DNA of 63,252 nucleotides, counting the filler, from Folioceros fuciformis (taxonomy: Eukaryota), in the NCBI GenBank assembly GCA_049999805.1. It is 15 parts of 15 records of this genome, joined end to end, with 100 filler letters (N's around TTAATTAATTAA, not from the genome) between each part and the next. Parts side by side here need not be neighbours in the genome. Positions count along the whole stretch, not along the records: positions 53,727 to 59,117 come from JBNGIO010002231.1; 14 more parts are not named here. One strand, given 5' to 3'. Every line of letters begins with the position of its first letter. Positions within the stretch are counted from its first letter, which is position 1. Shown here piece by piece: positions 1 through 59,117 of the stretch. The notes below the pieces were generated by a model. It did not search any database, was not told the origin of the DNA, and saw only the letters and a list, made by a program, of their open reading frames with translations. The translations under genes were made by a program, and so were the position numbers.

Positions 1-71
1 TTGGTATTCTAATAGTATGCCTGGGAGGTGTAGGTGGAAGAGGCGGTGGAGTCGGGGGCGCTCATGCGCGT

Positions 72-571: not shown

Positions 572-659
572 AATTGCGCAGCAGCACTTATAGATGCAAG
601 AGGTCGTCGGCGATGATAGGTATGCTAGGTTCACAACATGGCCCAGATTGCCTGTTGAG

Positions 660-671
660 GCTCTGATACCA
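660..671 (-). other. Primer binding site (tRNA-iMet)
   Basis: GCTCTGATACCA is the reverse complement of TGGTATCAGAGC. Confidence 0.9.
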
Positions 672-824
672 TGAGCGACAGTGCTTTCACGCAAACACAC
701 ACTTCTATTGATAGAATGAATCCATTACATAGGAAGGCAGTTGGCTGTTGGATAACTAACTCGCTAAATAAATTGTTTCACATTTCTAACAGCTAAGAAA
801 TACGTAAAGCATCAACTACTTTCA

Positions 825-3653: not shown

Positions 3654-3699
3654 GTACCCATAACTTTGCTTGTGAGGGAGGGGGTGCTCGAGAAAAAAA

Positions 3700-4804
3700 A
3701 ACCTTGAAAGAGAATTACGTGCACTTATTCAAGCCTAAGTCCTACCTGTGCTAATTACTATGGTCTTGGGTTTGCAGTGAGTAGACGCTGATGGTGGCTT
3801 GCAAGGTATAGCTGCCCTTGATAGCCTTCAATACATGGAGGCCCAATATTGCTTGCTACATGCAACCAACCTCCTTCCTGCTCACTAATGAAAACCACGT
3901 ACCTCGGTATTTGCTCGGCTTTGCTTCAATACCCTACGCTCTACGCCTCTTTGTTAGTTTGAGGAAGTTAGCATCATATTATTGTGAGCTATGTAAAATA
4001 AGTTGAAGAACACTGGCAACAACAACATTTCTTGTGAGTTGGGCCTTTTTGCTCCTATTTTGGCTTCTTGTTTCTTCATTTGTGATGCCTGCAATTTGGA
4101 ATCTTTCATCCTTGGTGTTGAAGAGGGTGCCCTCCCTTTGCAGGTGTGCCTAGGATTGGCTAAGGACTCTCTTTCTTCTATGGCTAGGATTGCTATGGCT
4201 TAATTTTCATCCTTTCTTGTAACGGGAATTCGGGGGCTCCAAGCCTCTCTTCTCAAAAAGGAAAACGCGCAAATGCAGCTCAATCTTCTTTGGGATTCTT
4301 TTATCTCGAGGCCCGTTCGGGTGCGGCTTCGTTTGCGCTCAGGAAAGGGTGCAAGCTCTTGGCTTGACCTAACATCCAAGCTTTCCAAATCACACCAACT
4401 ACATTCTTTACTGCGATGAGGTTTCGCCTTGGTTTGGTCCGATCTTTGGCATGCTCTCTCTCCTCTTGTAGTTGTGAGGCGCCTCTAAACAACTCTGGTA
4501 CTCATCTTGGCTGTTGCCCGGTTGGGAACCAACGGATTGCTACGCACAACGCCATGCATGATGTCATGTTTTCATTGGCTAAGGAGGCCGGCTTTCTGCC
4601 CTTACACTCTACTTACTGGCGTTCCTCTTCGGGCTGACCTTTCCTTGTTCAGGGAGATCAACAAGTTGTTATTGCTGATGTGGTCGTAAGTGACCCCACA
4701 TGAGTGACAGTCTGCGAGCATGTTGTGCTCAACTCTTCGGGTTGGGTAATACAGGGGAGTACATTGGCCAAGGTTCATAAGAACACCTTTGTACAGGCTG
4801 GACA
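3700..4804 (+). mobile_element. Non-LTR retrotransposon remnant with restriction-like endonuclease (CRE-like clade)
   Basis: MRFRLG..CSCEAPLNNSGTHLGCC..RIATHNAMHD..AKEAG followed by RADL..IADVVVSDP. This matches a CCHC + RH(N/D) + PD-(D/E)xK RLE signature. Heavily decayed; left boundary approximate. Confidence 0.65.
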
Positions 4805-4904
4805 NNNNNNNNNNNNNNNNNNNNNNNNNNNNNNNNNNNNNNNNNNNNTTAATTAATTAANNNNNNNNNNNNNNNNNNNNNNNNNNNNNNNNNNNNNNNN
4901 NNNN
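4805..4904. other. Artificial contig linker N44-TTAATTAATTAA-N44 (first of 14)
   Basis: Identical 100-bp linkers start at 4805, 7750, 11141, 14365, 26519, 33431, 37246, 40736, 43414, 47307, 49214, 53627, 59118 and 61605. The core puts stops in all six frames. Confidence 0.98.
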
Positions 4905-7749: not shown

Positions 7750-8209
7750 NNNNNNNNNNNNNNNNNNNNNNNNNNNNNNNNNNNNNNNNNNNNTTAATTA
7801 ATTAANNNNNNNNNNNNNNNNNNNNNNNNNNNNNNNNNNNNNNNNNNNNACATGAAGCAAATAGAAGCCTAGTAGATATAGCAACAGGTGGGAGTGTTGA
7901 AATAGCCCTTATTAGTATATTCTCTATATCAACTAGGGTTAGGGCACGTTTCATAATTTAATTATTATATAGGTGCAACTTATGAAAAGGTGCACCCATT
8001 GATGGTAGTTATAGCCCTAATTTGGTAGTTACTATTTAAGACATATTTTTCTTTTATTATTGTTGTACTTCATGAATCATTCAATAGAATGTATATATTT
8101 TACAATTAGCTCAATGCTTTGATTATAGCAATTCCTAAAATTAAAATAAAATAGAGCATGATCCATAGTTGCCTTCACATAGCGCAACGTTCACCTTGCT
8201 ACATCCAAA

Positions 8210-22974: not shown

Positions 22975-25900
22975 CTATGAAACTGCCGCAGATCCTTCTA
23001 CCATCTTCTGGGACAGGACCAAAGTGTTGAGGTCCGGAGATTGTGTCGGCAAGTTGTTGGACAGGTCAACAACCTCCAAATTCGTCAGCCCTGCGAAAGC
23101 CGCTGGGCTCAAGCCTGAGAACTTGTTGTGGGACAGGTTGAGGTAGCGCAGATCCTTGAGTTCTCCGATGGAAGGGTCGATCGATCCTGTGAAATCATTC
23201 CTTGACAAGTCCAGAGCGGTTGTGGCTTTGACCAAGGTCAAGAATCGGGTTTGGTCAGAGAAACTGAAAGCGTAAAATGGGGCCCCTGGACTATACTTCT
23301 TGTATTCGACGTCTGCAAACTTTACGGGGTAGAAGCCAGACACGAGCTGCGCAATTGGCAGATCACCTGTGAGCTTGTTGTTCGAGAGGTCCAGAATGCT
23401 CAGCGATGTCAGTTGGCTAAGGAAGGCTGGCACGTTTCCTGTGATGCGGTTGTTGCTGACGTCGAGAACTTCCAGCTGCAGAGTCAAATTCAACAGGGAA
23501 TGAGTAGACCTGGCCTGTAAGGCTGCCATACTCCTGGCTCAGGTGGTCGTCAAATCCAATGGAAGTAAAATGCAGCCTGACTTTCGAGCGGAGGCCAACA
23601 GGAAATATTACCGAGCCCAATGAGGTGATGGCCCACGGAATTTGTCCAGACAGTCGGTTGCCGCTCACGTCGTAAACCTTCAGAGCGCAGTAGCTGCCGA
23701 ACTTCGCTCCGGCAGGAAGGATCGGGCCTGTCAGCAGGTTATTCGCCACAACGAGAATGTGTATGGCGGGGCAAGCAGCGCTGAAGTCGGGGATAGGCCC
23801 TGTGAGCTTGTTGTTGCTCAGCTTCAACGCCATCACAGCGCAAGTAGTGACAAGGGTAGCAGGGAACGGGCCGGTGAGCTCGTTGTCGGAGAAATCCACG
23901 TGGTCGAAGAAGGCCTCGTGACATTCTGGGATGGGTCCCGACAGCTTGTTCTTGTTGAAGATGAGAGTACTGCTGGAAGCCTCGAAGATGTGTGAGGGGA
24001 TGGAACCTGTGAGCTGATTCTCGCCAAAGTTAAGGAAGCGAAGGAGGCACGACGATTCTGAACCAAAGCCTGTGGGGATGGACCCCCTGAACTGATTCTT
24101 GTGCAGGTCCAAGACCTCGAGATCCGGAAGCCAAGCAAATTCCTGTGGAATCTCCCCGGTGATGGCGTTGGCGGAGAGATTGATGTGACGGAGTCTCAGG
24201 AGGCCGTTGAATGTAGGCAACTTGGTGAGCTTGTTCTCTGCAAGATCAAGGACTTCTGCATTGTAGAGCTGGAACACCCATGGAGGGATTGGACCTGCAT
24301 GATCAGTCATAGAATGCACCTGTGTCAGCGACCATATTCCAACCTCAACAACAACAACAGCAACAGCAGGAACAGGAACATGTTATCCATCAGCAGTATC
24401 TGCAACCATATTCCAAGCCCTGGGCCAGCATCTACACCAATAGCATCATGTTATCTGTCCTCCGACATGTTAACATACCTTCCAGCAAGTTGGAGTGCCC
24501 GTCAAACCGGCGCACGTTGGAGTGCACATTTACAGTAAGTACAGTACAAGTTTGAGCTTCAGTACGCTGAGCGATCTGTACGTTCATCATGCACATGGCC
24601 GGAACGCTGCCATAGCCCAAACTGGTGAGCATGTTGTGGCTGAGATCGATCTCCCTTATCGCCCACAGCGAAGGAGGATTCAGAGCTCCTGAGAGCTGAT
24701 TATTGTTGAGTCTGAGGATGCGGTCACCACAGTCGCCCCCGCACCAGCTGTGATCTGGTAAGGATTCAGAAACTGCGAACCCCAGGTTTTCCGGAATCTG
24801 TCCAGACAACCGGTTGAACGACAAGTCCAGAAACCCCAGACGGAGCTGCGACAGGGAGTCGGGAATCGATCCTGAAGACGGCCACTTCCAGAGGATTACA
24901 CTATTTGCCACGAGGCTAAGACAAAAAAACCCGCACCAAGGATTGCGATGGAAGGAGAAGGAACATCCAACCGGTGAGGGAGTTCCTTGCTGCCCAGAAG
25001 AGGCGAAGCCGCTTGCCAGCACCTCCAAGAGAAGCAGGAATCTGACCGCTCAAGTCGTTGTCCTTCACAATCAGGTGGACGAGGAGTCCGTTTGCCCCGA
25101 GACCGGGAGGAAGAGAACCGGTGAGCAGGTTCCTGTATAGAGCAAGATCGGTGAGAGGCAGGCGCGCCAGGCCGGGCGGAATCGTGCCCGTCACGGAGGT
25201 GCCGCGGATGACCAGCACCTGTTCAGGACTTCTTTAAAGCATGGATGTAAGCATGTGGAGTGTGGCGCACTCAGCGCACCTGACAGGCGCTTCCACTGGA
25301 AAGGAAGAGGAACGGATTGAAGTAGAGGAGAAAGACGTAACGCGACAGGTGAGCGGCATGCCATACCTTCAAGTTGGAAAGCTTCCCTAGCTCGGGAGGG
25401 ATGGGACCAGAGATGGCACTCTTTTGTGAGTGCCGCTCGTCTTCGACTCGCCACCATTCTATGCCGTCGTCCCAGGCTCCGATCCACAGCTTCTTGAGCG
25501 AGACGAGGTTTCCAAAAGAGGGAGGGATGGCACCGGCGAAATTGGTCCCCGTCAAGTGCAGCTCCTTCAAGGCAGGAAGCTCGCCAGGGTTGATGTGCGG
25601 GAGCGGGCCGAAGAACCGGGTGCCGGTGAGCTTCAACGATCTCAGCTTCTTGAGCTGCTTCACGGCTTCAGGAAAAGGGCCAGAAATACTGTGACAGTTG
25701 TCCACCTCGAGCACCTCCAGATCTTGCAGCTCGCTGATGGATGCCGGGATGCCCGTACGTGGATCCTGAACACGCCAATCCGAAAATAACCCTGCAGACT
25801 GGAAGCTGAGCTTCACCACTTTCCCCTCGGCATTGCAGGACACGCCATCGAACTGGCAGCAGTTTCCATCGATTGTCCACGACTCCATCGACATTTTCCC

Positions 25901-26068
25901 GCCGAAGATCTGTTCTTTAACCGCCAGCAATGCTTTCCGATCCCGCGGCACGCACAGCGGAGTGGCGGCCCAGGCGGTGGAGAGGCTGAGGAGCACCCCG
26001 GCCAAAGCCAAAGCCAAAGCCACAGCCACAGCCACGGGCGGCAGTCTCCACATTCTAGCGATGTCCAT
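22975..26068 (-). CDS. Leucine-rich-repeat receptor-like or secreted LRR protein (about 5 exons)
   Basis: Signal peptide (VAVAVALALALAGVLLSLSTAWA); LRRNT_2 (C..DRKALL..W..CCQFDGVSC); many plant LxxLxLxxNxLxGxIP repeats; island-like segment. GT-AG introns at about 25219-25366, 24872-24971, 24295-24478 and 23476-23611. 3' end uncertain, no TM seen. Confidence 0.88.
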
Positions 26069-26694: not shown

Positions 26695-26842
26695 CCTAAC
26701 TCGGTTAAACTCGCGACTTTTGGGTTTAGCAAACTTAACACCATAAAAGCTACAATTTTGTATTAATTAAATTAAGTTCTTTTACTGCATTATCTCAATT
26801 ATTGCTTGTTAAGATAGTTTTGAACAAATGCATAAAATAACA
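26695..26842 (+). repeat. 5' LTR (first 37 bp or so missing)
   Basis: 6 substitutions in 148 bp versus the 3' LTR; ends in CA directly before the PBS. Confidence 0.93.
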
Positions 26843-26991
26843 TGGTATCAGAGCTCTCGATGCTCTGAGTCTTCCGCTGTACTACTCCTACATATGTTTA
26901 TTGCAATGTGATTGCAAAAATGTTGGGTTTAGTGTGTCTATTCTGGTGTCCTAGCAATCACATATGACAGACATAATAGACTCATGTTCCT

Positions 26992-27561
26992 ATGCTTAAA
27001 ATGCCTAAAAGGAGTGATAGGCGTATACAACCTATCTACTCAACTCCTTGGGCTGCTAGAGTAGATTATATTAGTAGACTACACAATGACCTGCTCTCAG
27101 TTGCTAGGAAGAAGGACTGGGTGAGAGAATCTTCTGTCTCTCCCTATAGCTACTCTAGTCGAGTGGTTTTCAGGCGGATTGAGCGTCTGCAATCAAGGAT
27201 TGAATGAGAAAATTGGTTAGGAGAAGTTCTTGAAGATGGAGTACTACTTGAGCAACTGGATTCTATAGCAAGTCCTTATTCAACTGACCATCTCATCCTC
27301 AAGTTGAACAGTATCAAATTGCTTGCTGGCCATATCTTTGCCTTCACAATCTCAAAACTTGGTGAAGTGATCCAAGGTGTGGAGTCCCTGCAATCCGAAG
27401 TTGCAGAGCTTGTCTCTCAACTTACTCAATGTAGAGTTCAACAAACACATGCCTTTGTCTCTACAGTGCAACCAATTTCAGCTATGTACCTGGAATCTCT
27501 TGTTTCCATGAGGGATGGAGCGTGCGCTGAAGATCAGACAAAGAAGACCCCTCAGATCTGA
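26992..27561 (+). pseudogene. ORF0, about 189 codons, one internal TGA
   Basis: ORFs 26992-27207 and 27304-27561 are in the same frame and continuous except for TGA at 27205; heptad-like LGEVIQGVESLQSEVAELVSQLTQ. Confidence 0.6.
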
Positions 27562-27913: not shown

Positions 27914-30900
27914 ATGTCCCTTTTTGCTGCAGATACTGACTCTGATAGTGATACTGATCAACTCTCCTGGCTTTTCCCAAATCCTTCAACTCCTTCGCTC
28001 TCTCCTGGTGTCACTATGACTACAGGTCAAGGACCCATGTCTATATCTGTAGGGTCATCATACTACGGTGAGTTCAAGGAAAAAGACAGGTTCGATGGAA
28101 AAGCATCACGCTTTGAAAGCTGGAAAGCACGAATGAGAGCTAACCTTGATGCTCGCGACGTTCTGGAGTATGTTGATGGCAGTATACCGAACCCTTTCCT
28201 TGTACCAGCTACAGCTGCAATTCAGCCTATGCCTGATGACAAGGCAAAGTGGAAGAAATGCAACAAGGTTGCATTTGCTATTCTTTTGTCTGGCCTGGAT
28301 GAGACCACAGTTACTGAAGTGGATTCACTGGAATCAGCCGAAGCTGTGTGGAAGCAACTTCATGACACTTATCAGGTCAGAAACATATGTACCATGATCA
28401 ATGCAAGAAACGACTTCCACAGTTTGAGGTTGAGGGAGGGGGAACCAGTTGGTGCTCATGTCACCAAGTTGAGGCACCTGCGAGCACTGCTTGCTGCGCT
28501 AGGTACCAAGATTACTGAAGTGGAGTTGACAGCACAACTGTTGACCAGCCTGCCCTCATCCTATCAATCCTTTATTTCCAGCCAAAATGCCACTTTGCGT
28601 GATGCCTACTCAGCAGCAGCAAGTGGCCAACCTTCTACACTCAACCTGAATGATATAGTTGGGGCCCTCCTGCAAGAGGAGCAGAGCCGCCAACGCTCTC
28701 ACTCTGGTTCAAGGCTGCGTGGTGAAAAAGTTCTTCTTGCTGAAAAAGGCAAGCAACAATGGAAGGGGAAGGACAATAGTAAAAAGAATTCTTCAAACAC
28801 TTATGTTACCTCTTCCTCCACCACTAAGCGCACAGGCAGTTGCAACTAGTGCCAGATTCCTGGGCACTGGGAACGTGACTGTAGAAAGAAGAAAGCTGGA
28901 GAGCCGAAAGAGATGGTTAGATCAGAGGCCCATGTTTCGTCTAAGGAAGCAAAACCTCAGAATGGCCAACAAAAACCTTGAAGCAGCAGTTCTGTACTCA
29001 CAGTTTGTCTGACTTCGACTACTGAGAACACACAGCATTGGTTTGTTGATTCGGGAGCAACTTCTCACGTCTGCAACAATCAACAAATGTTTTCTTCTTT
29101 TAACAGTCTGCAAACCCCTCAGTCTGTTTTTGTGGGTGATGCACAAGGCATTGAGGTAAAAGGGATAGGTATAGTAGACATACCACTTCTTGATGGCTCC
29201 TTTTTACATCTTCAGGAAGTCCTGTTTGTACCAACAATGAGTAGTAACTTATTATCTGTTAGAGCCATTTCTAGAATGAATAGATATGGTTTTCGTTTTG
29301 AAAATAGTACATGCTACATGTATCCCCTTACCTACCCAAAGAAGATTCTAGCCAAGGCGGTCTTAGTACACGATCTTTATCAACCGGTTCAGGAGTCTAA
29401 GTCGCGCACCAGAGTCCTTCTTGCTTCATCCAATGACAAGGCTAACCTGTGGCATTCGAGGTTGGGCCATGTAAACAAGTCGAAGTTGGATTTTATGTCG
29501 AACTCCACATTCTACAGAGAGAAGCTCCCTAGTTGTTTCAAGCATTTATCAGCCTGCTCCTCCTGCATACTATCTAAACAAAAAGAATTGCCTTTCAAGA
29601 ATAAACAACCAACCAGAGCAACTGCTGTTCTTGAACTTGTGCACGCTGATATTGCTGGAAAGCTGCCTGTGAAGTCCCTTGGTGGAGTAGAGTATTATCT
29701 CTCCTTGCCTGACGATTTTTCTCGCTATACTTGGAGCTTTCCTATCAGGCTAAAGAGTGATGTGTTCGAACACATCTCCTCCTGGATCCTCATGGTCTAG
29801 AGACAGACTGGACGTCTTGTCAGATGCTTCCGGACTGATAATGGAGGGGAGTTCATTGGTCATCGGTTTGATGACCTTTTCCAAGCTTATGGTATTCTTC
29901 GTCAGCTGTCTGTGCCCTATACACAACAACAGAATGGTGTTGCTGAGCGGAAAAATCAAACTTTGATGGGCATGACCCGCAGCATGCTCTCATGGGCTAA
30001 CTTACCTAAATCTCTCTGGGCAGAAGCCGTGGTGACAGCTACTTACATTTTGAATCGCCTTGTTACTTCAGCTCTGCCTGATTGTACCCCTTATGAAGCA
30101 TTCTGGGGTCGCAAACCAAGCTTGCTTCACTTGAGGGTCTTTGGGTCACCAGCCTTTGCTTTTGTTCCTAAAGCCAAGAGGGGAAGCTAGATGATAGGTC
30201 TCGACCCTCCATCTTTGTTGGCTATTCAGAGGAATCTAAAGCCTATAAGTTGTATGACCCTAAGACTTCCAAGATTACACTAGCCCGTAGTGTTACCTTC
30301 AAGGAGTTCTTGACTCCTCAAATAGATTCCTTGTCTACCACTCTTGAGAGTATACCTGCTGATACAAAGTCCACACAAGAATACCCACAATCAGATGGTG
30401 ATGTAGCAGTTGACGCATTCTTACAACCATTAAATGGTCAACCAGACCCACCTTTAGCACCTGGAGTTGGTATACCTCCTGTAGATCCGGATCCTCTCGT
30501 TGCTGAGCACCATGAGGGGGATTACCAATATAATGAGGAGCAGCCAGGTGGTTTTGAAGACTCGCATATCAGTGAAACTCCTAGTGATGGTGTATTGTCA
30601 GATCGTGATGAGACTGTTGATGCTGATCCTCCTCCTCGCTATCCTGTAAGGATGAGAAGATCACGAGAGTTATGGGATGAGCCACCCTATCAGTCTGAGG
30701 ATTTCAGGAGACATACTGCAGACAATGTAACAGACTTGTATGTACCTGATGTCAGACCTGATCCTCGAACACTTGATGAAGCACTGACTGGTCCTGATGG
30801 GGCTCATTGGCGAGTGGCTGTGAATGATGAGTATAATAGTCTCCTCAAAAACCAGACGTGGGAGCTAGCTGATCTGCCACCAGGCAGGAAACCTATTACC

Positions 30901-33205: not shown

Positions 33206-33390
33206 TGTTAAGGTTATTTTAGATAACCATTGGTTATATTAACCTAACTCGGTTAAACTCGTGACTTTTGGGTTTAGCAAACTTAACACTATAAAAGCTA
33301 CAATTTCGTATTAATTAAATTAAGTTCTTTTACTACATTATCTCAATTATTCCTTGTCAAGATAGTTTTGAACAAATGCATAAAATAACA
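33206..33390 (+). repeat. 3' LTR (185 bp)
   Basis: TGTTA...TAACA, preceded by the PPT. Confidence 0.95.
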
Positions 33391-41029: not shown

Positions 41030-43413
41030 GAAGTGTAATCTGGTGGGGTCTGGGCTCGTGTGTTGTGACGGAAACTTGTAAATGGGGACCAGCTGGTTGC
41101 TAGCCTTGCTGTTGAAGGTGGAGTGTCGGGGTCGAAGTTGACTTCCACAAAGTCCTGAGCTTGCTCCTGCCTCTTGGCTGCCCTCCTCTGTTGTGTGTAT
41201 GCACGTCTAGGTGGGGTGCTTTGTCCAGGGATGTCACGGGATCTCAGTCTATAACAAGGACTGGTCCCATGCTCCTTAGGTTGCATTCCCCCATAAACAT
41301 GCACAACAAACAACAAGTCAGCTAGCTAGGCTGGAAGAGGAAAAGAAGGCAAGCCAATACTGCATTCACGCTTGCTGCTAGAGCTAGAAAACCAAACCAA
41401 TCCACAACTGTGAAATGCAAAAGTCACAGCTTCAAAAAAGGACTTGTAGGGAGCCGGTCTAAAAGCTAAGCTAAGAGCTAAGCTACACGTAATGAAAGAC
41501 CTCAAATATCACTGTCCACGAGAGCCCTAGCCCCTATGCTGCAACAAGAGGAGTGTTGGCTGCAAATAGCCAACATGCCCTAACTGAAACCCTAGGTGAC
41601 CAACTCCTCCAAGGCATTTAGTCCCTGTATTTCACTCTAAATTGAACAAAAATTATACCAATGGCTTTGTCTCAGTGAGGCAAACAATCTAGTATGCAAA
41701 TTGAAAGCAACCGACCTCTGAAACCGACGCTACAAACTCTGGAAGGTTGGGAAAGCTTGCTGCAGTTGAACTGCTGTTGTTGCTGCTAGCACGATTGGGG
41801 CGTGTGGGTGATGCTGCCTTGCTGTAATTGCGTGGCCACCTCCACCTAGCTCATTCGCTCCCACATCTTGCTTCCCTGTCCAGATTGAGATAGTTGTTGA
41901 AGTGAAGAGATTGTAGCAAAACCTTGCAGCAATTTGGGTTTGAAAGGAGCTACGTGACACACGCAGCTTGGTGAGTGAATAAGTTACGCCATGGACTGCA
42001 ACACTGGAATCAAAGGCGCTGAAAACGTTCTTCATCCTAGCTCCCAATTCGAGAGAACACAAAAACATGGTTTGAGCTGCCTTCCCCCAGTTACAGTGCT
42101 GCGCGGCGCAACTTCAACAACCATCGACTTCTGCCCTGGCTGCCCCTTTTGCCTAACGCCAGCCATCTTCATGATCCAACGTCCAGCTGAGTTGGCTTCA
42201 CGCCCTTGCATCAGCACTGCTCCTTGCATGATGCCTTGCTAGCGTACCCTAAGTTCTGTTGTTTCCCCACGTTGCCACGTTGGGCAGCAGGGTTACACCA
42301 ACAACAAGTTGGGAAATACCCAACATGCGTTCAGACTCAACTTGCCTAGAAACATCTAGCTATTTCTAAGCTAGTTTGCGAAATATCTACCTAAGCTAAG
42401 TTCATTTATCCTAGCATTTAAAACATATATTTGCTATCCTATTCTAAACAACATTGGCTGAGGGTTTCTTACCTAATCGGCGGTCACCTTCATGACAAGG
42501 CTCCATACGACACCTTCCTCAACCCCACAATCTAGCTGCTCGTCTCCCTACGACCAACAAGTTTCCCTCCGAGCCTGCTCAGCTCCCTCCAACTGTGTTT
42601 ATCGTTCACCTACGACATTCAACCTTCCCTATCTCATACCTTCAACACGTCCAATCGGTAGGAAGGCACCATTCCTTCACTTGGAAGGGCCCCAGTACCT
42701 CCCCCTACCGACTTCCAACTACCTACACCCACCACCTCTCCCCACAAGTCTCCTCACAACACCTTTCACACCATCCAACTCCACGTCTCCCTACATCCAA
42801 CGACCAACAAGTTTTTCCTTGGGCCGGTTGCTGCGTGCTTGTGCCTGTTAGCAAGAACTTCAAGGGAGTCTTTCCCTAGAGTCTACCCTCAAGCCAACAG
42901 TCACACAAGTATTGCCACACACCTACAGCAGCACAACAACCATTCACAAGGGAAGCAACTTGCAGGGGTGCCCAGGAAAAATATGAACCTTCCGCCAAGC
43001 ACTTCGACCACTACAACTCTAGCCACAACCAAATGCTGTGATGGCACACAGCCGGCAACAAGATTCCTATGCTCTGCTGAGCATGAGAACTCGCCATGAG
43101 AAGAGTGCGGAATGTGGTGGTTCATTTCTTTGTGTAGCCCCTCTTTATAGGAGAGATCGACACATGAACCCTCTACTCCATGTAGGTGGTGGGCTACTCT
43201 TCTCTCATACTAGGCGCCACCAACTTTAACTGCACACACCTACCAAGAGGCTAAGTCCTACCAATAATTGTTAGGGCAGTGCGTGCCGCTAAAGATTCGG
43301 ATTGTCGGCCATAGAAGATTCGCTGACCCTCTCTCTAAAAAGGTGTGGCTAGGACTGCTCCTGAAGGGAGGCAGAGTCTGAAGGTTGAGCTACTGGGCCC
43401 CCCTCCATTATTG
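41030..43413. repeat. Unclassified dispersed element
   Basis: 41878-42170 matches 5690-5990; 42805-43413 matches 50675-51270. Confidence 0.65.
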
Positions 43414-43513: not shown

Positions 43514-43720
43514 TTCTCCCAAGTTGAGTTGATGAGATCTTCTCTCTGGAAGAGGAGATGCCTAGCCTGGAGGAGGATTTGTCCAGTTGTGACGTTGGCC
43601 GTGTGGAAGCACACAACGTCGGCTCACTTGATGTTGAACTTGTTGTGGATGATTCGTGTTTAGTCTACTCACAAATTGTGAGAGAGCATCATTAGGACGC
43701 TGCCCACGCCTCCGTGTCAT
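43514..43720 (-). pseudogene. ORF0 N-terminus (not in the ORF track), one TAG
   Basis: MTRRRGQRPNDALSQFVSRLNTNHPQQVQHQVSRRCVLPHGQRHNWTNPPPG*ASPLPERRSHQLNLGE aligns to the ORF0 starting at 48541. Confidence 0.7.
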
Positions 43721-46634: not shown

Positions 46635-47306
46635 CTAGAGCTAACAACTTCAAAGTTCAAGCACCTCACAGGTCTACCGAATATGGTTGGAGCTATAGAT
46701 GGTTCTCACATCAAGCTCGCTACACAACCTAATAAGATAGATAACCCAGGTGCATACTGGTGTCGTCATGATATTCACTCTATTGTACTACAAGGCGTAT
46801 GTGATGCTGATAAAAAATTCATTGATGTATGTTGCACTCATTCTAGTGGAGTTCATGATGCTACAATTTTGAGGGAGAGTAGCATATGGGAGAAGATGAA
46901 GACGGGTGTTATTTTAAGAGACCCTATTCTACATATCGAGGATATTGAAATGGCTCCATATATCTTAGGTGACAGTGTTTACCCATTAATGCCTTTCCTC
47001 ATAAAACCATTTTATGCAACAGGTGAAGATCGGACTAAAAAACATTTCAATTGGTCCTTGAGAAGGAGAAAAGTGAAAGTGGAAAATGCTTTTGCCTTAT
47101 TGAAAAATAAATGGCGTGTTCTAAAGAATAATAATATGCGTTTGAAGTATGCTCCGCAGGTTGTTATCGCTTGTTGCGCACTTCATAATTTTTGTATACA
47201 AGTTGGAGAGTTAGAAGCACGACAATATGATGAAGACCCATTTCCACTACATGAAACTAAGTGTAATCATACTTGGGAGGCTCTTGCAGAGCGTCAGATG
47301 CACAAC
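46635..47306 (+). mobile_element. PIF/Harbinger transposase (DDE_Tnp_4, HARBI1-like), partial
   Basis: GAIDGSHI, SIVLQGVCD, HDATILRES, ILGDSVYPL, VENAFALLKNKWRVL, ACCALHNFC. Confidence 0.93.
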
Positions 47307-47406
47307 NNNNNNNNNNNNNNNNNNNNNNNNNNNNNNNNNNNNNNNNNNNNTTAATTAATTAANNNNNNNNNNNNNNNNNNNNNNNNNNNNNNNNNNNNNN
47401 NNNNNN

Positions 47407-48923
47407 AGGTAAGCTTGCATCCGGGCTCTCCAACTTTCATAGTTGATAGACTTGCCATCAAAACAATCTTTTTCTTCAAATTCTCCAGCATAGTTACCAG
47501 CTCCAGTAGTTGTAGTCATACTGATAATTGGTGGTGCTGAAGTAGATATGAATGGAGGAGGATTGAATGCAGGAAACTGAGTTTGCAGGGATTGGACAAA
47601 CGCAAGTTCAGTTGCTAAGTCCTCATCTAGATCACTATCTGAGTCCGAAGATAACCAGCTAAGGCCAAACGACATGGAAGAAAGCGAAACGACATTAAAG
47701 GAAGGTATGTGACGTTTTGCCTAAAACCGACACACTTAGGGTTAGATATGAAAGTATCTAAATTATCATGAAATGTTGCAGATGAACGCGTTGCAGTGAC
47801 AAGTGGCAGAGCTCAGCAACCGCCATTTCTGATGAAGAGTACCGATTGAGATCTGCCAGCGTGCCCTCTCTCCAGCACTGCAACTCACGTGATCCCCCTC
47901 CAATTCTGGAGCGAGAGATCACTTTGCGCAGGGCGTCGTTACAGATCTGGCTGTCCACACGTCAGCGCCATGTACAGATCCTCACGAATGTGCAGAGAGC
48001 TCAGCAAATTAGTGGCAGCCTGATGTGACTGCGGCACTGAAGTAGTCACGGATCCAATTTCCAAGCGCTCAAGTCTCTCTGACTGAAACGAGAGTGAATT
48101 CTGCACACCGCGAATCAGGGTCTGTACCAACATCAAGCGTTCACCCTATTGCAGCAACAGAGACTGCTGCCGACGAATTTGAGTAAGAATCGATCCCTCT
48201 GAGTTGGTGATGCTTGATCGTAGTCCCTCCGACCTGAACTCAATCATGGAATCAAGGGTATCGAACCCTTCATTAGTTTCTGAATACGTTGGAGAATCTG
48301 ACCGCCTTGGTCTGTCGTGGGTATTGCAGGGAGGCGGAGACGGAGCTCTATCCCCTAAGTTGAGCTGATAAGGCCTGCGCACAGATGGTCGAGGTGTCCA
48401 CTGCTCTTGCTGGCCTTGAGGAAACCGGTGCCCACCACGATTGTTTCCTTGCCGCTCAACTTGGTGTGTTCGACTCCTGTGTTGTCTGGTCACAAATTGT
48501 GACGAAGACTCCTCGGGACGTCATCCACCTCTCCGCACCATTCATACACACAACACAGACTCATTTATGTATTCATCTCATAGTTTGTAGAAAATACTGA
48601 TGATCTCTAGAGTGCACACAGAGATGCCTTAGTAGCCACATAATCAAACATTTCTCAAGAAGAGATTTGTTCATTTTGTGGTTAGGTAAAACATCTATGT
48701 ATGCAGTATCCTAGAATCAAAGAGAATACAAATGGATCAAGTAAACTGGTGCTATGATACCATGCTACTAATTGCGGAAGCGAGCTTTGTAAAAGCATCA
48801 ATTAATTAAATAAAAAGGAAAGTGTCCTTTAAATACAAAATTGTATAGTGACTTTTGGGTTAAGTATTTAACCTCTGATTAGCAGCTAGGGTATTAAATA
48901 TGTTAGGTTTCTTACTCCTAACA
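47407..48923 (-). mobile_element. Copia 5' end: LTR 48763-48923, PBS 48751-48762, ORF0, gag start at 47675
   Basis: PBS TGGTATCATAGC; gag EFEEKDCFDGK..YESWRARM is homologous to the gag at 27914. Confidence 0.9.
47939..48541 (-). pseudogene. ORF0, about 200 codons, two internal stops
   Basis: ATG at 48541 (MVRRGG*RPEESSSQFVTRQ) is in frame with ORFs 48146-48493 and 47939-48136; helical C-terminal half. Confidence 0.7.
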
Positions 48924-50082: not shown

Positions 50083-50284
50083 TGTTACAAATGTAGTTTT
50101 GGTAGTTAGCATTTCCAGTTAGAACGGTTACCACTCCTGTGCTATTTAAGAATCTGATGTTACCTTACTTGACAATCAATGACAAAATCTATTCCTCTGT
50201 AGATTTTGTGCTCCCTCTTGTCAACTCCTGAGATCCACAGATAGCAGAATGCAGCTATCGCTAATTGCATTATGGTATCAGAGC
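50083..50284 (+). mobile_element. Probable LTR and tRNA-iMet PBS (50273-50284)
   Basis: TGGTATCAGAGC preceded by ..TTGCA-TTA; LTR start approximate; no gag follows. Confidence 0.6.
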
Positions 50285-50674: not shown

Positions 50675-51270
50675 CCAACAAGTTTTTCCTTGGGCCGGTT
50701 GTTGCGTGCTTGTGCTTGTTAGCGAGAACTTCCAGGGAGTCTTTCCCTGGAGTCTACACTCAAGCCAACAGTCACAAAGGTATTGCCACACACCTATAGC
50801 AGCACAACAACCATTTACAAGGGAAGCAACTTGCAAGGGTGCCCATGGAAGAATATAAGCCCTCTTCCAAGCACTTCGACCACTGTAACTCTAGCCACAA
50901 CCAGGCGCTAAGATGGCACACAGTCGGCAACGAGATTCCTACGCTCTGTTGAGCATGAGAACTCGCCATGAGAAGAGTGCAGAATGTGGTGCTTATAGGA
51001 GAGATCAACACATGAACCCTCTCCTACATGTAGGTGATGGGCTACCCTTCTCTCACACTAGGCACCACCAAACTTTAACTGCGCACACCTACGAAGAAGC
51101 TAAGTCCTACCAATAATTGCTAGGGCAGTGCTCGCCGCTGAAGATTAGGACTATCGGCGCTGCCATAGAAGATTCGTTGACCCTCTCTCAAAAAAGGTGT
51201 GGCTAGGACTGCTCCTGAAGCTAGGGAGAGTCTGAAGGTTGAGCTATTGGACCTCCCTCTGTTATTGGGA
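50675..51270. repeat. Second copy of the unclassified dispersed element
   Basis: Aligns to 42805-43413. Confidence 0.85.
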
Positions 51271-52994: not shown

Positions 52995-53726
52995 GTTTGG
53001 TACCTTTTTCCATAACACCTTAATTCTTAATATAAAATGATGCACATGAATTTCTCAACAAATATATTTCGTATGCACTCAAATCTATGCTTTAAGTCTA
53101 CTAGTATATCTCAAATAGACCAAAGAATTTATATTTGAATGAACTAAACAAAGTACTGATCATTAAAAAATTATTTTATAACAAATAAGAGAAAAATAAA
53201 CTAATAATTATAAGGAGTGAAAAGGAGAGAAAATTAATAAGAAAATTAAAAAAAAATGTATGAATGGGTGAGGGAAAAAGTAGAAAAAAGGCCAAGAAAA
53301 CAGGATGAAAATTTTAAGGAGGAAAAATTAAGATTAAAAAGTGAGAAAAAAGAATAGTGATTGCACACTTGCATTCACCACTTAGTAGCATTTTGCAATT
53401 TGTTTTCAGATTTTTTTTTTCGATTTTGATCTTAGGAGTGACGAATTTTAGAACAATTTTCAACATGTGAATATGGCCAAAACTATAAATCCAAAGGGGA
53501 AATATCTCCTCGATGTCTATGAAGGAAATTGTTACTGAAACTTAATTGGTGCACATCAAACTTTGAGGTGGGATTTTGAGAATATATTGGGTTTGAAAGA
53601 GTAAGGAGTGCTCTTCCAGATGGACCNNNNNNNNNNNNNNNNNNNNNNNNNNNNNNNNNNNNNNNNNNNNTTAATTAATTAANNNNNNNNNNNNNNNNNN
53701 NNNNNNNNNNNNNNNNNNNNNNNNNN

Positions 53727-56700
53727 CCTGGCGCTCCTCATCTGTCTGTGGACACTGATCATGAGAAAGCTTCAATCCTGCAACTCCAGGAGTAGACACG
53801 GGTTTAGCAGTGTCCAGGTGAAAACGGTGCAGGGTTTCAGCAATATATTTAGCTTGATGAAGCATAAGGGAGCCAGCTTCTAGATCACGAACAAGTTGGA
53901 CACCGAGGACAAAGGTAAGAGCTCCAATGTCTTTCATGTCAAACTTCTGATGGAGCATGTCTTTGACCCAAGATAACAAGCCTGGATCGTTGGATGCGAG
54001 AATGGCATCGTCGACATACAAAGCGAGAACCACGAGAGTACCATCCTTGTTGTAAAAATACACGTTGGCATCACCAGGGTTTTGAATGAAGCCGATGGAT
54101 TTAAGGTACTTGTCAATTGTTTTGTACCACTCCCGTGCTGATTGTTTTAACCCATAAATGGTCTTCTTAAGATGGCAGACCCAATCTGGATGCTCGGGGT
54201 CCACAAAACCCTCAGGCTGCGACATATAGATGTCCTCTTCCAGCTCACCGTAGAGGAAAGCTGTGCAGACATCCATCTGCTGGAGGTCCCAAGCGTTGGC
54301 TGCAGCTAGAGCAAGTATCATACGAATAGACTGGGTCTTTACCACAGGACTGAAAGTCTCTGTGAAGTCAATACCTGGAATCTGGGTGAAACCCCTAGCC
54401 ACAAGCCGAGACTTATATCGAGCAATCTCACCCTGGGCATTCAATTTGTGCTTGAAGACCCACTTGCAGCTGACAACTTTCCGACCTTTAGGTAAGGGGC
54501 ACAATTCCCATGTATCGTTCTTTATCAAGGAGTCATACTCATCCTTGATCGAGGGGATCCAGTGTGCCTTGTCAGCACCCGTGATTGCCTCCCGATATGA
54601 CTTAGGTTCAGGCTTGATGAAGAGTGGATTGCTCACAGAAGACTTGGATTTTGGCAGGGTTACTCCAGCTCTAGGGCGTCGAAAGTCAATAGAAGCATAT
54701 GGGGGTTCTGTCCACTGGGCGGGAGGATTCCTGGTGCGCTGAGGATAGCGACGTTCTTCAGGCTGTACAGCTAGAGGAACTTCAGCCACATCGTCATCAT
54801 CAGTAACGGGACCAGGTAAATTGTCATTCAAATCAGAATCAGTAGAGTGGACAGAAATATCTTCTGCAGCGAGATCATTTTCAGCCTCATCCTCTGCTGC
54901 AGGCTGTTCCCTGACATCATTAGTATCAGAAGCCTGGTCTTCTTGAACCAAGTGAGCAGGCGGTGCTACATGAGCAGCTGGATCAGGAGCCTGAAAATCT
55001 GGTACAGCAGGGTCATTGGCCTGTGGATGTGCAGGACCCGCTCCAGGGTGTTGCACGGCTGCAGGAACCTCAATGAGCACAACTCCAGGTGTGTCGTCTT
55101 GTGGAAATTCGGATGAATCTTCCATGTTTGTCAAGTCCACATGAGTGACTCTTTCACTGTTGTCTGACAGGTGATCAAAATATGGCTTGGCAGGACACAC
55201 AAGTTCTTTGAAGGTCACGCTTCTGGCAAAGACTGCTGTCGAAGTAAGTGGATCAAGCAACTTATAAGCTTTAGCCTCTTCCCCATAACCCACAAAAACA
55301 AGTGGGCGTGCTCTATCTTCTAACTTTCGTCGCCGCTCTTCAGGGATATATGCATATGCTGGGGAGCCGAATACCCGCAGATGCAGCAGGCTCGGCTTTC
55401 TTCGCCATATTACCTCAAACGGAGTTTGTCCATCCACAGCGCTTGTAAGAAGCCTGTTAAGGAGATAAGTTGCTGTAACCACTGCCTCTGCCCAGTATGC
55501 TTTGCTTAAACCTGCCCATTCTAACATGCTTCTTGTCATTCCTAGCAGAGTCTGGTTACGACGTTCAGCAACGCCGTTCTGTTGCTGAGTATACGGTACA
55601 ATCAACTGTCGTACAACTCCCTTTTCCAGCAGGAACTGGTTGAAGTGGGCATGGGTAAATTCTCCCCCGTTGTCAGTACGAAGCTGTTGTAGCAAGCATC
55701 CAGTCTGCCTCTCCGCCATCACCAACCATTCCTGAAAGATCTCAAACGTATCGGACTTCAACCGGAGAGGGTATGTCCAAGAGTATCTACTAAAGTCGTT
55801 AGTAATGGTAAGGTAATATAGGGCACCACCTAAAGAGGGGACATGAATCTTGCCTGAAATGTCCGCATGTACTAACTCTAGTACCTGTGATGCACGATGA
55901 GCCACTGATTTAGGAAAAGGAATTTCCTTTTGCTTGGCTATGACGCAGGCATCACAAAGAGGTAGGTCTTTAAAACATTTTGGCAAGGGCTCTCTATAGC
56001 AGTTCAAGTTCGACATTTTTATCAACTTGTCTCTATTAGCATGACCTAGTCTAGCATGCCATAAACTGGCTTGGGCAGACTGTGATAAGTGAGCGGCATG
56101 CACAGACTCAGGGGGAATGCATGTGAGATCAAGCTGGTACAAGTCATGAAAAAGATGTCCTTTACCTACGACCTGTCCATCCCCCCCTCGCTTCTTAAGT
56201 TCACAACTATGAGAAGTGAAGAGGAGGTCGTACTCTCTAGAAGACATTAATTGACTAACTGAAAGGAGGTGCTTGGCCATGAGGGGAACATGCAGGACGT
56301 TGTCAAGATGGAGGATGGACCCATCGTGCAACCGGAAACGACATGTGCCTGACCCAGCAATGTGCAGACCTGTACGGGTAAGTTCATCTCCCAGCAAAAC
56401 CTTATCAGACGTATGAGAAGGTCGATAGTGACTTAGCAAACTTCTGTCGTTACAGATATGGGAGGTTGCCCCAGAATCTAAGTACCAACTATGAGGGGAA
56501 GGAGGACCTGCAGACGATGCAAAACAAACGGTCATGACGACAGGAGGTTTGTTAGCAGTTGATGAAGGCTTAGCGACAGTGTGGGCCTCAGCCTGCTTAG
56601 GCTTCTCGACCTTACGAGCTTCGCCAGCTTTCTTTTTTCTGCAGTTCCTCTCCCAGTGGCCCTGGATGCCACACCAATTGCAGGATCCAGGCCGCTTGCT

Positions 56701-57558
56701 GGAAGAAGGTCCAGAAGGTGAGTCACCAGGAGTGGGTCTACCCTTCTGTCCTTTATGCTGCTTCTGTCCTTTAGTATAAAGAACCTTGTCTGTTTTTGTT
56801 TTTCCACCCTGTGGTGTATAATGAAGTCTGCTTTGCTCCTCTTGCAGGAGAGCACCGATCACGTCCATAAGGCTGATTTGTGGTGCTTTGCCAGCAGCTA
56901 CAGCTTTGTCTGCCGCGCGAATGGAAGCACCAAAGCCGGAAACAAAGGTCTGGTAGCTGGGTGGTAGGCAAGTGAGGAGTTGAGCGACTGCATCCAACTC
57001 CGGAAACTGAGATCCTAGGTTCAGAAGCTGGGCCCTTAGTTGGCGAAACTTCAAGACGAAAGGTCCCACCTTCTCGCCTTCTCTAAGTCTCATTGAAAAC
57101 AGCTCTCCACGGATTGCACACTGTGTAAGTATGTTCTTTGCCTCGTACGTTTGCAGCAATTGTGTCCAGATTTCGTTGGAGTCTGGTAGGTAAGCCACAT
57201 CGGGCAAAAGGACTTCATCAAGACCACTAATCAAGACCGCACGAGCAACGTGGTTCAGGTTGTCCCACTTCTCTATCTCATCCACTGGAGCTCCTGCAGC
57301 TGGTTTAGGGAGTGTGCCACTAACCACATTCCACACGTGCCGAGCTTGCAGGGCAGCGGTCATTCGCACACGCCATCCATGGAACTTGGAGCCATTGAAA
57401 CGGTCCTTCTCTTTAAATTCCATGGAGAAGGATGGTGCAGGTATCACTGGCACTGGTGGAAGAGATGGAACTCCTCCACCGCCACCTCCAGCACCCCCTC
57501 CGCCTCCAGCTCCAGCACCCCCTCCTCCTCCACCTCCAGCGCCCCCTCCTGTAGCCAT
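53727..57558 (-). CDS. Copia gag-pol polyprotein (partial, more than 1270 aa)
   Basis: Poly-Gly N-terminus, FKEKDRFNG, CNWCGIQGHWERNC, WYLDSGAT, rve, YVDD; no stops. Confidence 0.97.
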
Positions 57559-57902
57559 TCTGACTTACTTTGATAAGATTATCAGGTGCTCACGGGTGAT
57601 CAAGCCGATTGCATAAGGTACTCTTCTCGAGGTAGGTCGAGATGCTGTAGGAGGCTGACAGATGAAGCGTAGGAGAGGGGCACCAAGGGTCGGTGAAGAG
57701 GCGCGAGCCGCGAGGTCAGATGTCACGGGACACCACAGTGGGCGTCGGTTGACGGTTAGAGTCTGGAGATGGCTGACGTGGTGTGTCTTCGAGTGGCTGG
57801 GTGCAGAGTCGCATCCTGTGAGTTCTTGCTGCGAGCAGGCACCTGTAGGTCGAGGCGCCTCCCGCCAGAAAAACACAGCGAGCACGAATCTGCAGATGCG
57901 CC

Positions 57903-58463
57903 CTACCGCGCTGAAGGCGACGCATGGAATCTGGGCTTCTCACGGACAGGGTCCAGCGCATGGAGCAGAGCTGCTGCAGCAGGATACGGGCTCGAGTCGT
58001 GCACTGATTTGCGTTGCAATTCAGTCATGAGATCAGTGAGTTTCCTGACATCCTCTATCAGCGTCGTCTGTTTGCGCAGGAGTAGATCCACCGCTGCCAA
58101 GGTCTCTTGATGGCGCGCAGTGTGAACTTCGCCCTGTCGTGAAAGCACAGTGAATAAGGCCGATTCTGTGGTGTTCAACCTGTCATTCAGCACTCGGTAA
58201 GCTCCGACTATCTCCGGCAGGTTGGTAGCCCGAGATCGGAATGTTTCCCGCAAGTCGTCCTCTTGTGAGTCTCGAGATTTCGGATGTCTTTCAATATGCA
58301 CCCTGTTTGGAGTTCGAGAGAAATGCAATGTGTAAGGGATATCTTCCTGGCCTGCGTGATAATCTCGTACAGTCCTGGAAGCCTGATCCTGACGCCTAAT
58401 TGTGGGTCGACTGCAGGGTAACAAAGGTGTATGCTCGACGAGAGAAAGCCCCCGTCGAGTCAT
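57903..58463 (-). CDS. ORF0: intact 186-aa extra ORF upstream of gag, coiled-coil-like C-terminal half
   Basis: ATG start MTRRG; YRVLNDRLNTTESALFTVL and LAAVDLLLRKQTTLIEDVRKLTDLMTELQRK heptads; lies between PBS and gag. Confidence 0.7.
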   Translation of the reverse strand: MTRRGLSLVEHTPLLPCSRPTIRRQDQASRTVRDYHAGQEDIPYTLHFSRTPNRVHIERHPKSRDSQEDDLRETFRSRATNLPEIVGAYRVLNDRLNTTESALFTVLSRQGEVHTARHQETLAAVDLLLRKQTTLIEDVRKLTDLMTELQRKSVHDSSPYPAAAALLHALDPVREKPRFHASPSAR

Positions 58464-58747
58464 TTTATGATTAGAGTAGCATGATCTGCTGCGTTACGAC
58501 AGACAGATCCACACAGCAGAAGTCTCTTGTTTACTGTCATGCAGATTCTAAAACATATTACATTGCTAACGTGGTAATGTAGGTAGTGAGAAGGAATTTT
58601 AGACACACGATCCTAGAATCACAATTTCTGTGACTCATGGATTTTGTGTCCTATAATCCCCTTTTGCTACATGCACCTACCATAGCCGAGTATATTAATA
58701 CAGACAGTAAATCAGATCGTGTATCAAAGCCTAGTGCTCTGATACCA

Positions 58748-58946
58748 TGTTTCTAAATCAGATGTACTCATGCACGCAGGTGCTTGAAACAAAGTGAGTT
58801 ATGTTGTCATGAACATACAAAGTGTGTCTTATATATCAAAAACTGTCCAAGAGTCATGTCTATTCAAATTAACCTAGGTATAAATAACTATCAGCTAATA
58901 AGCTGCTACGTTTATACAAGAACCATAACGGGGTTCTCTTCTAACA
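58748..58946 (-). repeat. 5' LTR (199 bp)
   Basis: TGTT..AACA adjacent to the PBS. Confidence 0.85.
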
Positions 58947-59117
58947 GATGGTACGTAGACGGATTGTCCAGATCTCATACTCGCTCCCATTGAAGCGATC
59001 TCTATCCTTGAAGTCTACTTTGAAGTGTGTGACACTTGTGCGTACAGGTGCTTGTGGTTGCGGACCACCACCACCGCCACCACTCCCTCCTCCGCCTCCT
59101 CCCCCTCCACCGCCACC
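58947..59117 (-). pseudogene. N-terminus of a related copia gag, interrupted by the element above
   Basis: Minus strand reads poly-Gly-PQPQAPVRTSVTHFKVDFKDRDRFNGSEYEIWTIRLRTI. Confidence 0.85.

Follow-up and report, generated by a model that had tools for sequence, protein, structure and literature searches.

An extra sense open reading frame upstream of gag in a compact Ty1/copia retrotransposon of Folioceros fuciformis

Retrotransposons of the copia superfamily are usually treated as encoding gag-pol only. In a contig of Folioceros fuciformis (JBNGIO010002231.1, assembly GCA_049999805.1), a copia element with a short long terminal repeat (LTR) contains, between its primer-binding site (PBS) and gag, an additional intact open reading frame (ORF), here called ORF0, and this raises the question whether such a frame is a gene that the element maintains or a stretch of leader that happens to be open. 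The window analyzed, a stretch of 63,252 bases, consists of 15 contigs, each 1.5-12 kb long, strung together and is not a single locus; adjacency across its 14 linkers, each composed of N44, TTAATTAATTAA and N44 and serving as a six-frame stop linker (for example 4805-4904 and 7750-7849), is uninformative. The contig with ORF0 occupies 53727-59117 and is preceded by the linker 53627-53726. In our judgment, the chances are about even that ORF0 is a maintained, element-encoded sense 5' accessory ORF of a short-LTR Ty1/copia family. The basis for this reading is the improbable length of ORF0, a collinear intact relative, a confidently predicted helix that evolves more slowly than the remainder, indels that, among those listed, are restricted to spacers, and recurrent improbable frames in two other families. 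A maintained 5' gene would, if true, add an accessory function to the superfamily.

The frame between the primer-binding site and gag

Judged by its gag-protease-integrase-reverse transcriptase (RT) order and its RVT_2-type RT, the host element is a Ty1/copia retrotransposon. Pfam matches within its gag-pol comprise Retrotran_gag_2 (66-244), Pol_BBD (358-439), gag_pre-integrs (472-543), rve (558-656) and RVT_2 (1014-1258; E 1.7e-70), and the lineage traits that could be read for this focal element are a PBS of the complete-tRNA-Met type and a short LTR. An earlier note on this DNA had described a short-LTR copia element, and the 199-nt LTR and the copia domain order agree with that description. 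ORF0 is located on the gag-pol strand between PBS and gag, in a frame that differs from that of gag and with stops in between, which is the position of a sense 5' extra ORF. Its ATG (58463) lies 272 nt past the PBS and its stop 344 nt ahead of the gag ATG (57558); the values given before, about 270 bp, about 345 bp and a length of 186 amino acids, were thus close to the measured ones, the frame having 186 codons. The same note had considered the copy intact, with an uninterrupted gag-pol. Gag-pol is indeed open over 1277 codons, but the focal contig ends within pol just past RT, with RNase H and the 3' LTR absent, and therefore the word intact covers only gag-pol up to the contig end.

The length of ORF0 was compared with dinucleotide-preserving shuffles of the 1177-nt leader, in each of which the longest sense ORF starting with ATG was scored. 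A sense ORF of at least 186 codons was obtained in 0.28% of 5000 shuffles and in 0.23% of 3000 shuffles, with a mean longest ORF of about 72 codons. It is unlikely that ORF0 is a chance frame. When a codon table was trained on the focal element's own gag-pol, the ORF0 frame scored -0.02 bits per codon and its other two frames -0.28 and -0.26, as compared to 0.03-0.25 for six held-out gag-pol windows read in frame and -0.06 to -0.45 for two spacers. The score of the ORF0 frame lies between those of gag-pol and of the spacers, and the contrast is partly due to the absence of stops alone. At codon positions 1 and 2, nucleotide use in ORF0 is like that in gag-pol.

A collinear relative, the predicted protein and genomic copies

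A word-indexed search of 5.8 billion proteins yielded 492 candidates, one of which, P0001, reached E ≤ 0.01. An exhaustive HMMER search of 1.84 billion representatives gave two matches at E ≤ 0.001, namely P0001 and a spurious one. P0001 is a protein of 185 amino acids from a 939-bp contig, and 130 of the 186 residues of ORF0 (70%) are identical in it, with a single gap of one codon; both proteins are collinear from start to stop and their first and last residues are alike. The spurious match, P0002, a TPR protein of 1030 amino acids, was rejected as a relative, as only ORF0 residues 142-173 match, a 32-residue helical stretch that we consider a helical-repeat artefact. Matches of ORF0 to PHROGs (E 0.15) and to PDB sequence profiles (E 0.34 and 0.76) were disregarded. 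Homology of ORF0 to gag was also rejected, hhalign giving a probability of 0.2% with a resemblance over just 10 residues (REKPRF/KEKDRF). Scans of metagenome contigs with the ORF0+P0001 profile and with gag amino acids 41-480 produced 165 and 100 pattern matches, respectively, none of which was confirmed by tblastn.

In order to judge how readily a neutrally diverging frame stays open, the ORF0 DNA was evolved in silico in 3000 runs until it had gained the 55 replacements observed, which took about 96 substitutions. The frame was still open in 5.0% of the runs, a figure that frameshifts, if counted, would reduce. Replacements between ORF0 and P0001 are unevenly distributed, with 16 of 91 positions affected in the helix region 65-155 versus 40 of 95 elsewhere (Fisher P=0.0004), and the hydrophobic core changes in the helix region are conservative (L>I, L>I, M>V and F>L).

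AlphaFold2, run with the two-sequence alignment of ORF0 and P0001, gave a model with a mean pLDDT of 66.5, in which residues 1-64 are predicted to be disordered (pLDDT below 50-55), residues 82-155 form a helix of about 75 residues at pLDDT 84-96, residues 162-169 form a short helix, and no other folded domain is seen. The N-terminal half (residues 1-64) has a pI of 11.1 and contains 11 Arg, 6 Pro and 5 Ser, as fits the basic R/S/P-rich half recognized earlier. The C-terminal half had been called heptad-like, and this holds as well: the predicted long helix has Leu at 128/135/142/149, without a single heptad register throughout, the best register placing hydrophobic residues at 12 of 22 a/d positions. 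The earlier note had proposed AlphaFold, Foldseek and coiled-coil prediction as a check, and these analyses led to the long helix and to a generic coiled-coil likeness with no known fold. Foldseek against PDB returned two matches at E ≤ 10, neither of which reached E ≤ 0.001. In a wide structural search with VIA-align, generic coiled-coil chains only were retrieved, at Z 7.0-7.5, which is less than the level that the search itself deems meaningful for long helices, and none of 48161 chains reached Z 8. A two-copy prediction of ORF0 residues 60-170 scored 0.02 against a mark of 0.32, which counts as 'no answer', and it was used neither for nor against self-association. A generic coiled coil aside, the models of ORF0 point to no known fold or family.

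If maintained, ORF0 would use the full-length RNA as its messenger, with translation upstream of gag, and its product of about 21 kDa would combine a disordered, Arg-rich N-terminal half with an amphipathic helix of about 75 residues that has leucine heptads. From this architecture, and by analogy to the 5' ORFs of Tekay elements treated below, the basic tail may function in nucleic-acid binding or nuclear import and the helix in self-association or docking on Gag. The protein could then be a cofactor for element RNA handling, particle assembly or targeting, as has been proposed for the Tekay and Ogre 5' ORFs. Translation of ORF0, selection on it and each of these functional steps are what we infer; none of the specific accessory functions put forward earlier (anti-silencing, RNA chaperone, assembly or targeting) obtained support. 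With its 186 amino acids, the ORF0 product would be a tractable small protein for asking about the function of 5' extra ORFs in plant retrotransposons, which reviews leave open.

Copies of the family were sought in two DNA runs of the same sample, X1 and X2, which contain 0.82 and 0.81 of the sampled leader words, respectively. When their contigs were aligned to the whole focal contig at a likeness of at least 80%, 397 (X1) and 404 (X2) contigs matched, 238 and 259 of them at less than 90% likeness, and therefore the element family is multi-copy and diverged. All 30 bins of the focal contig were covered in X1 and X2, those of ORF0 included. Among the 12 indel places listed out of 52, ten are in the two spacers flanking ORF0, two in pol and none in ORF0, a picture that the 40 further places could alter. 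Also among the places listed, a related contig has six small indels with lengths that are not multiples of three in the PBS-ORF0 spacer (58684-58729), and one related X2 contig has indels of 27, 1, 1 and 1 nt in the ORF0-gag spacer (57686-57885).

These data bear on the idea that ORF0 was captured by transduction, as a piece of a host gene or some other mobile element, and is present in few copies only. The finding of a single relative would suit such a capture. The X1 and X2 contigs cover the ORF0 bins like the rest of the element, however, and the relative is 30% diverged yet collinear, indicating that the ORF travelled with a diverging lineage and not with a single copy; moreover, no host-like or longer homologue exists in the 5.8 billion proteins or the 1.84 billion representatives, where the 32-residue TPR match was the only other one. 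We consider a capture very improbable.

Positional analogues and rival explanations

The earlier note had pointed to similar-sized ORFs at the same position in four other stretches of the window (26992-27561, 47939-48541, 43514-43720 and 72-571) and had taken them as further copies of the ORF0 family. A PBS precedes all four of them, but none is open. Where tested in 3000 shuffles of the respective leader, their lengths are improbable: for 26992-27561, 0.03% of the shuffles (P=0.0003) contained 189 codons in a row with one stop or none, and for 47939-48541, 3.8% (P=0.038) contained 200 codons in a row with two stops or fewer. The element to which 26992-27561 belongs (PBS at 26843) has a 148-nt LTR pair (26695-26842 and 33243-33390) that is 96% alike, and its gag-pol, 47% identical to the focal one, has five stops and one frame change. 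One disruption in 0.57 kb of the 5' frame is similar to six in about 3.6 kb of gag-pol, and so the frame was plausibly open at insertion. A model of the 26992-27561 frame, predicted from the single sequence with X at the stop, has a helix at 98-184 (pLDDT 58-83, mean 54.7) and was considered too weak to count. In the frame in which it had been given, the stretch 72-571 has many stops, and it is best read as two frames.

That these stretches are copies of the ORF0 family was not borne out, as there is no detectable homology and the gag-pols of the window copias, where present, are only 30-47% identical to the focal gag-pol. The frames at three of the four stretches start with MTRRG, MVRRGG and MTRRRG, so that the M(T/V)RR..G starts noted before do exist; two of the three come from the related pair 43514 and 47939, however, and since these two are close relatives, both 'M.RR' starts are one observation. 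The (P)Y.L motif also noted amounts to a few residues only. Smith-Waterman alignments with window shuffles (six tests, uncorrected) provided no more than hints: the score of P0001 with the 135-codon frame of 72-571 was equalled in 6 of 2000 shuffles, that of ORF0 with the 72-571 frame in 71 of 2000 and that of ORF0 with 47939 in 89 of 2000. By sequence comparison, what ORF0 and its analogues have in common is position, size and, where tested, improbable length, and nothing else. A long ORF-bearing leader is not universal among the window copias, since a copia at 32% gag-pol identity with its PBS at 3465-3476 (minus strand, contig 1-4804) has a leader of about 240 nt with no long frame.

In the main rival explanation, the long leader is a cis-acting RNA, which would harbor PBS-proximal structure, packaging or dimerization signals or translation control, and ORF0 would be a frame without function, open by chance or by recent origin. 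We regard this explanation as possible, on balance unlikely. The observations collected in this and the following two paragraphs weigh against a maintained gene, and those on RNA structure, initiation context, replacement pattern, orphan status and decay of the analogues at the same time favor the cis-acting leader. The R-U5-PBS leader (58464-58800) folds with z=-5.19, none of 100 shuffles being as stable, and the ORF0 RNA is moderately structured (z=-2.9), as compared to a spacer downstream of ORF0 that is not notably structured (z=-1.41). Since the ORF0 RNA is somewhat structured, conservation at the RNA level is plausible. Between the TATA box and the ORF0 ATG there are ten ATGs with frames of 1-26 codons, and a 14-bp hairpin of the minimum-energy fold sequesters the initial 33 nt of ORF0 with its AUG (58431-58463, minus strand). 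The ORF0 ATG itself has an A at -3. Upstream ATGs and the hairpin at the AUG argue against efficient initiation by scanning.

Relatives other than P0001 were not obtained: none of 8 candidates among shorter proteins and none of 4385 candidates among longer proteins of the 5.8 billion collection reached E ≤ 0.01 to ORF0, and the ESM Atlas contained no usable ORF0 match. Pfam searches gave no family for ORF0 at E ≤ 1 and none for P0001 at E ≤ 0.1, and ORF0 is an orphan with this single relative. The replacements between both proteins are indistinguishable from neutral ones, the fraction with positive BLOSUM62 values being 0.31 versus 0.27 ± 0.06 under neutrality (P=0.26) and the mean BLOSUM62 value -0.33 versus -0.56 ± 0.21 (P=0.14). 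P0001, which is available as a protein record only, was found because its frame is open, and its intactness is therefore partly an ascertainment effect. In addition, X1 and X2 each have one contig that passes from 58027 to 58105 and omits 77 nt of ORF0; as read from these contigs, at least one copy of the family is disrupted or unalignable within ORF0.

All four positional analogues are broken by stops or frameshifts. A tblastn search with ORF0 found no match elsewhere in the window, tblastx and blastn among eight leaders linked only 43927 and 48762, a hidden Markov model of ORF0 and P0001 found only itself in the six-frame translation of the window, and hhalign against the ORF0 profile gave probabilities of 0.8% for 47939-48541 and of 0.1% in a second comparison. 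In the related pair 47939/43514, the frame is 60% conserved and diverges faster than the non-coding upstream leader (71%), and an excess of changes at third positions is weak (31 of 63 versus 46 of 128, one-sided P=0.055). In favor of a maintained gene, the same frame has a single indel of 15 nt, whereas the upstream leader has indels of 1, 10, 1, 5 and 1 nt.

Against a merely cis-acting leader stand the rarity of such a length, which is reached in about 0.3% of shuffled leaders, and the retention of start, stop and length in P0001 under a divergence that, if neutral, leaves the frame open in just 5% of simulations. Pointing in the same direction, two other families have near-open frames of 189 and 200 codons at the corresponding place, and the listed indels (12 of 52) are located in the spacers and pol, with none in ORF0. 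If the ORF0 frame is not maintained, the case would be a warning that ORFs recurring at one position of retroelement leaders can be a misleading sign.

The layout of the leader raises the further possibility that ORF0 is a long regulatory upstream ORF, whose translation matters and whose peptide is irrelevant, and which would ferry ribosomes through the structured leader and set reinitiation at, or shunting to, gag. The gag ATG is in a stronger context (A at -3, G at +4) and yet is about the 22nd ATG. Whatever ORF0 may be, simple scanning cannot take ribosomes past some 20 ATGs to gag-pol; splicing, shunting, reinitiation or internal entry is required. A candidate intron that would excise ORF0 (GT at 58680, AG at 57890), seen by eye, was dropped, as its acceptor is without a pyrimidine or U-rich tract. 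A regulatory upstream ORF would explain recurring position and length without recurring sequence, and three unrelated sequences are in fact alike in layout, with gaps of 137-272 nt between PBS and ORF, frames of 186-200 codons, distances from stop to gag of 344 and 352 nt in two families (454 nt in the latter if a later gag ATG is used) and no protein similarity across families. Reinitiation past an ORF of 186 codons is usually inefficient in eukaryotes, however, the helix region is significantly better conserved between ORF0 and P0001, which suggests a constraint on the sequence itself, and a confidently predicted long amphipathic helix would be unexpected if the peptide were irrelevant. We therefore hold a purely regulatory ORF to be improbable. 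A fixed position combined with a freely diverging sequence could fit a host arms race or a translational device.

The gag frames of the elements with PBS at 26843 and 48762 have, before the conserved gag start, an in-frame N-terminal extension with Asp/Ser repeats, at 27914-28016 (plus strand) and about 47520-47700 (minus strand), respectively (MSLFAADTDSDSD... and MSFGLSWLSSDSDSD...); the focal gag has a poly-Gly run instead.

Known extra ORFs and further features of the window

ORF0 was compared with extra ORFs of other retroelements. The text of the survey by Neumann et al. 2019 (PMC6317226) reports extra ORFs (eORFs) of at least 250 codons in 582 Ty1/copia elements, which fall into 45 mutually dissimilar groups and are scored by 5' or 3' position and by orientation. 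The suggestion of the earlier note that such an ORF is possibly undescribed in copia elements finds no support in these numbers. The same text names SIRE as the sole copia lineage characterized by an eORF (3' forward), and states that most copia groups take the complete tRNA-Met's 3' end as the PBS target. Like the REXdb eORFs of this survey, which are heterogeneous, mostly domain-less and different among related elements, ORF0 is an extra frame outside the polyprotein and would be classed as eORF-5'F. In contrast to them, it has 186 codons and fails the stated threshold of at least 250, so that it would go uncounted. Judged by title and abstract, none of the papers that full-text searches brought up describes a copia 5' ORF of such architecture; copia ORFs of the 5' forward type may be included in the figures and additional files of Neumann et al. 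2019. Passages of the review by Vicient and Casacuberta 2020 (PMC7264820) mention extra ORFs upstream or downstream of gag-pol and capture events limited to one or few copies.

ORF0 matches in pattern the 5' ORFs of Tekay chromoviruses (sunflower Tekay 13-2 and rice RIRE3, RIRE8 and Retrosat-2), as portrayed in parts of a sunflower study (PMC11728184). There, the 5' ORF is conserved in 500 of 523 elements of the family, and its proteins are disordered and compositionally biased, with few helices and a predicted nuclear localization. Shared with ORF0 are the sense orientation, the location between 5' LTR and gag, a disordered, biased protein with few well-predicted helices and no known domain, and the retention of the position without amino-acid similarity between families of different species. 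Tekay elements are Ty3/gypsy chromoviruses, however, and their ORFs encode about 400 amino acids, whereas ORF0 belongs to a Ty1/copia element, encodes 186 amino acids and is known from the focal copy and one intact relative.

Ogre elements (Ty3/gypsy, Tat clade) are likewise plant LTR retrotransposons with an extra sense ORF upstream of gag. According to the survey text (PMC6317226), 57% of Ogre eORFs have a plant mobile domain, whereas ORF0 is without a Pfam match, and the domains of the Ogre, Athila and Retand extra ORFs (PF10536, PF03078 and PF04195) found no match in ORF0 or P0001. Ogre elements are also very large and have long LTRs, as opposed to the 199 nt of the focal LTR. The SIRE env-like ORF resembles ORF0 in being an extra ORF of Ty1/copia elements that evolves fast and, as stated in the survey (PMC6317226), forms many mutually dissimilar groups; it differs in its location between pol and the 3' LTR, ORF0 being upstream of gag.

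Outside the LTR retrotransposons, LINE-1 ORF1p is encoded upstream of the enzymatic ORF and has a coiled coil followed by an RRM and a C-terminal domain (Transposase_22). We use it as a working analogy, as it is a small protein that combines a coiled coil with nucleic-acid binding, features that are proposed for ORF0. ORF0 has neither the RRM nor the C-terminal domain, no Pfam match and no folded domain besides its predicted helices, and the element classes are unrelated.

ORF0 is best placed among the 5' sense extra ORFs, as a short orphan case, under the size threshold of the main survey, from a compact copia family. A wider proposal, which we consider doubtful, is that a clade of compact short-LTR plant copias possesses a position-fixed, very fast-evolving 5' gene, encoding a basic disordered tail and a coiled coil, that would be needed for RNA packaging, nuclear targeting or silencing evasion. 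Such a gene would be the copia counterpart of the Tekay and Ogre 5' ORFs, would have been overlooked through the survey cut-off of at least 250 codons, and would have diverged, decayed orthologues in the frames at 26992, 47939/43514 and 72-571.

Coordinates of the focal element, of its neighbor and of the positional analogues are collected in Table 1.

Table 1. Features of the focal copia element and of comparable leader frames, in positions of the whole window.
Feature	Positions	Strand	Description	Source
5' LTR, focal copia element	58748-58946	minus	199 nt; ends TGTT...AACA; TATATAA at 58835	sequence reading
PBS TGGTATCAGAGC, tRNA-Met type	58736-58747	minus	directly after the 5' LTR	pattern search
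Leader from PBS to ORF0	58464-58735	minus	strongly structured; short upstream ORFs	
ORF0	57903-58463	minus	186 codons from ATG to stop; predicted Arg-rich disordered N-half 1-64, long helix 82-155, short helix 162-169	
Spacer from ORF0 stop to gag ATG	57559-57902	minus	344 nt	
gag-pol	53727-57558	minus	open over 1277 codons, ending with the contig; gag, protease region, integrase, RT	
N-terminal fragment of another copia gag	58947-59117	minus	poly-Gly, then FKVDFKDRDRFNGSEYEIW...; interrupted by the focal insertion	
Analogue from another copia family	26992-27561	plus	189 codons, 1 stop; 137 nt after PBS 26843-26854	
Analogue	47939-48541	minus	200 codons, 2 stops; 209 nt after PBS 48762-48751	
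Relative of the 47939-48541 frame	43514-43720	minus	69 codons, 1 stop; cut by the contig end	
Stretch after a PBS	72-571	minus	PBS 671-660; 35-codon frame, then a 135-codon open helix-like frame in another frame	

The 5' LTR of the focal element (58946-58748) abuts the PBS at one end and an interrupted foreign gag frame at the other, and, with the 3' LTR absent from the contig, its boundary stands without a second copy as a check. The focal element forms a nested insertion, sitting inside the N-terminal coding part of the other copia gag (58947-59117, minus strand), which reads poly-Gly and then FKVDFKDRDRFNG...; in tblastn, amino acids 24-66 of gag match 59081-58956 with 44% identity (E 0.54).

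Two further runs were aligned to this contig. Six records of run X4, which is guessed to be RNA, align, and the listed pieces are located only on poly-Gly-coding repeats and on a 37-nt stretch of pol. On 53727-59117, run X3 displays 297 C>T and 428 G>A changes versus 4-64 for each other change, a pattern that looks like that of a bisulfite-converted library and that could report the methylation state of the family.

No Rfam family was matched in a search of the window. PBS-type sites were encountered at 50273-50284 (plus strand) and 61199-61188 (minus strand), exact and with one mismatch, respectively, on contigs whose remaining 3.3 kb and 2.0 kb have no gag-pol similarity; they may be non-autonomous derivatives or chance matches. 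The stretch 51000-51267 is 88% identical to 43152-43413. Two Pfam findings elsewhere in the window indicate a plant host, namely a Plant_tran/DDE_Tnp_4 transposase fragment at 46683-47354 and, at 22975-26068 (minus strand), three ORFs with LRRNT_2 and many LRR matches, as in a plant LRR receptor-like protein gene.

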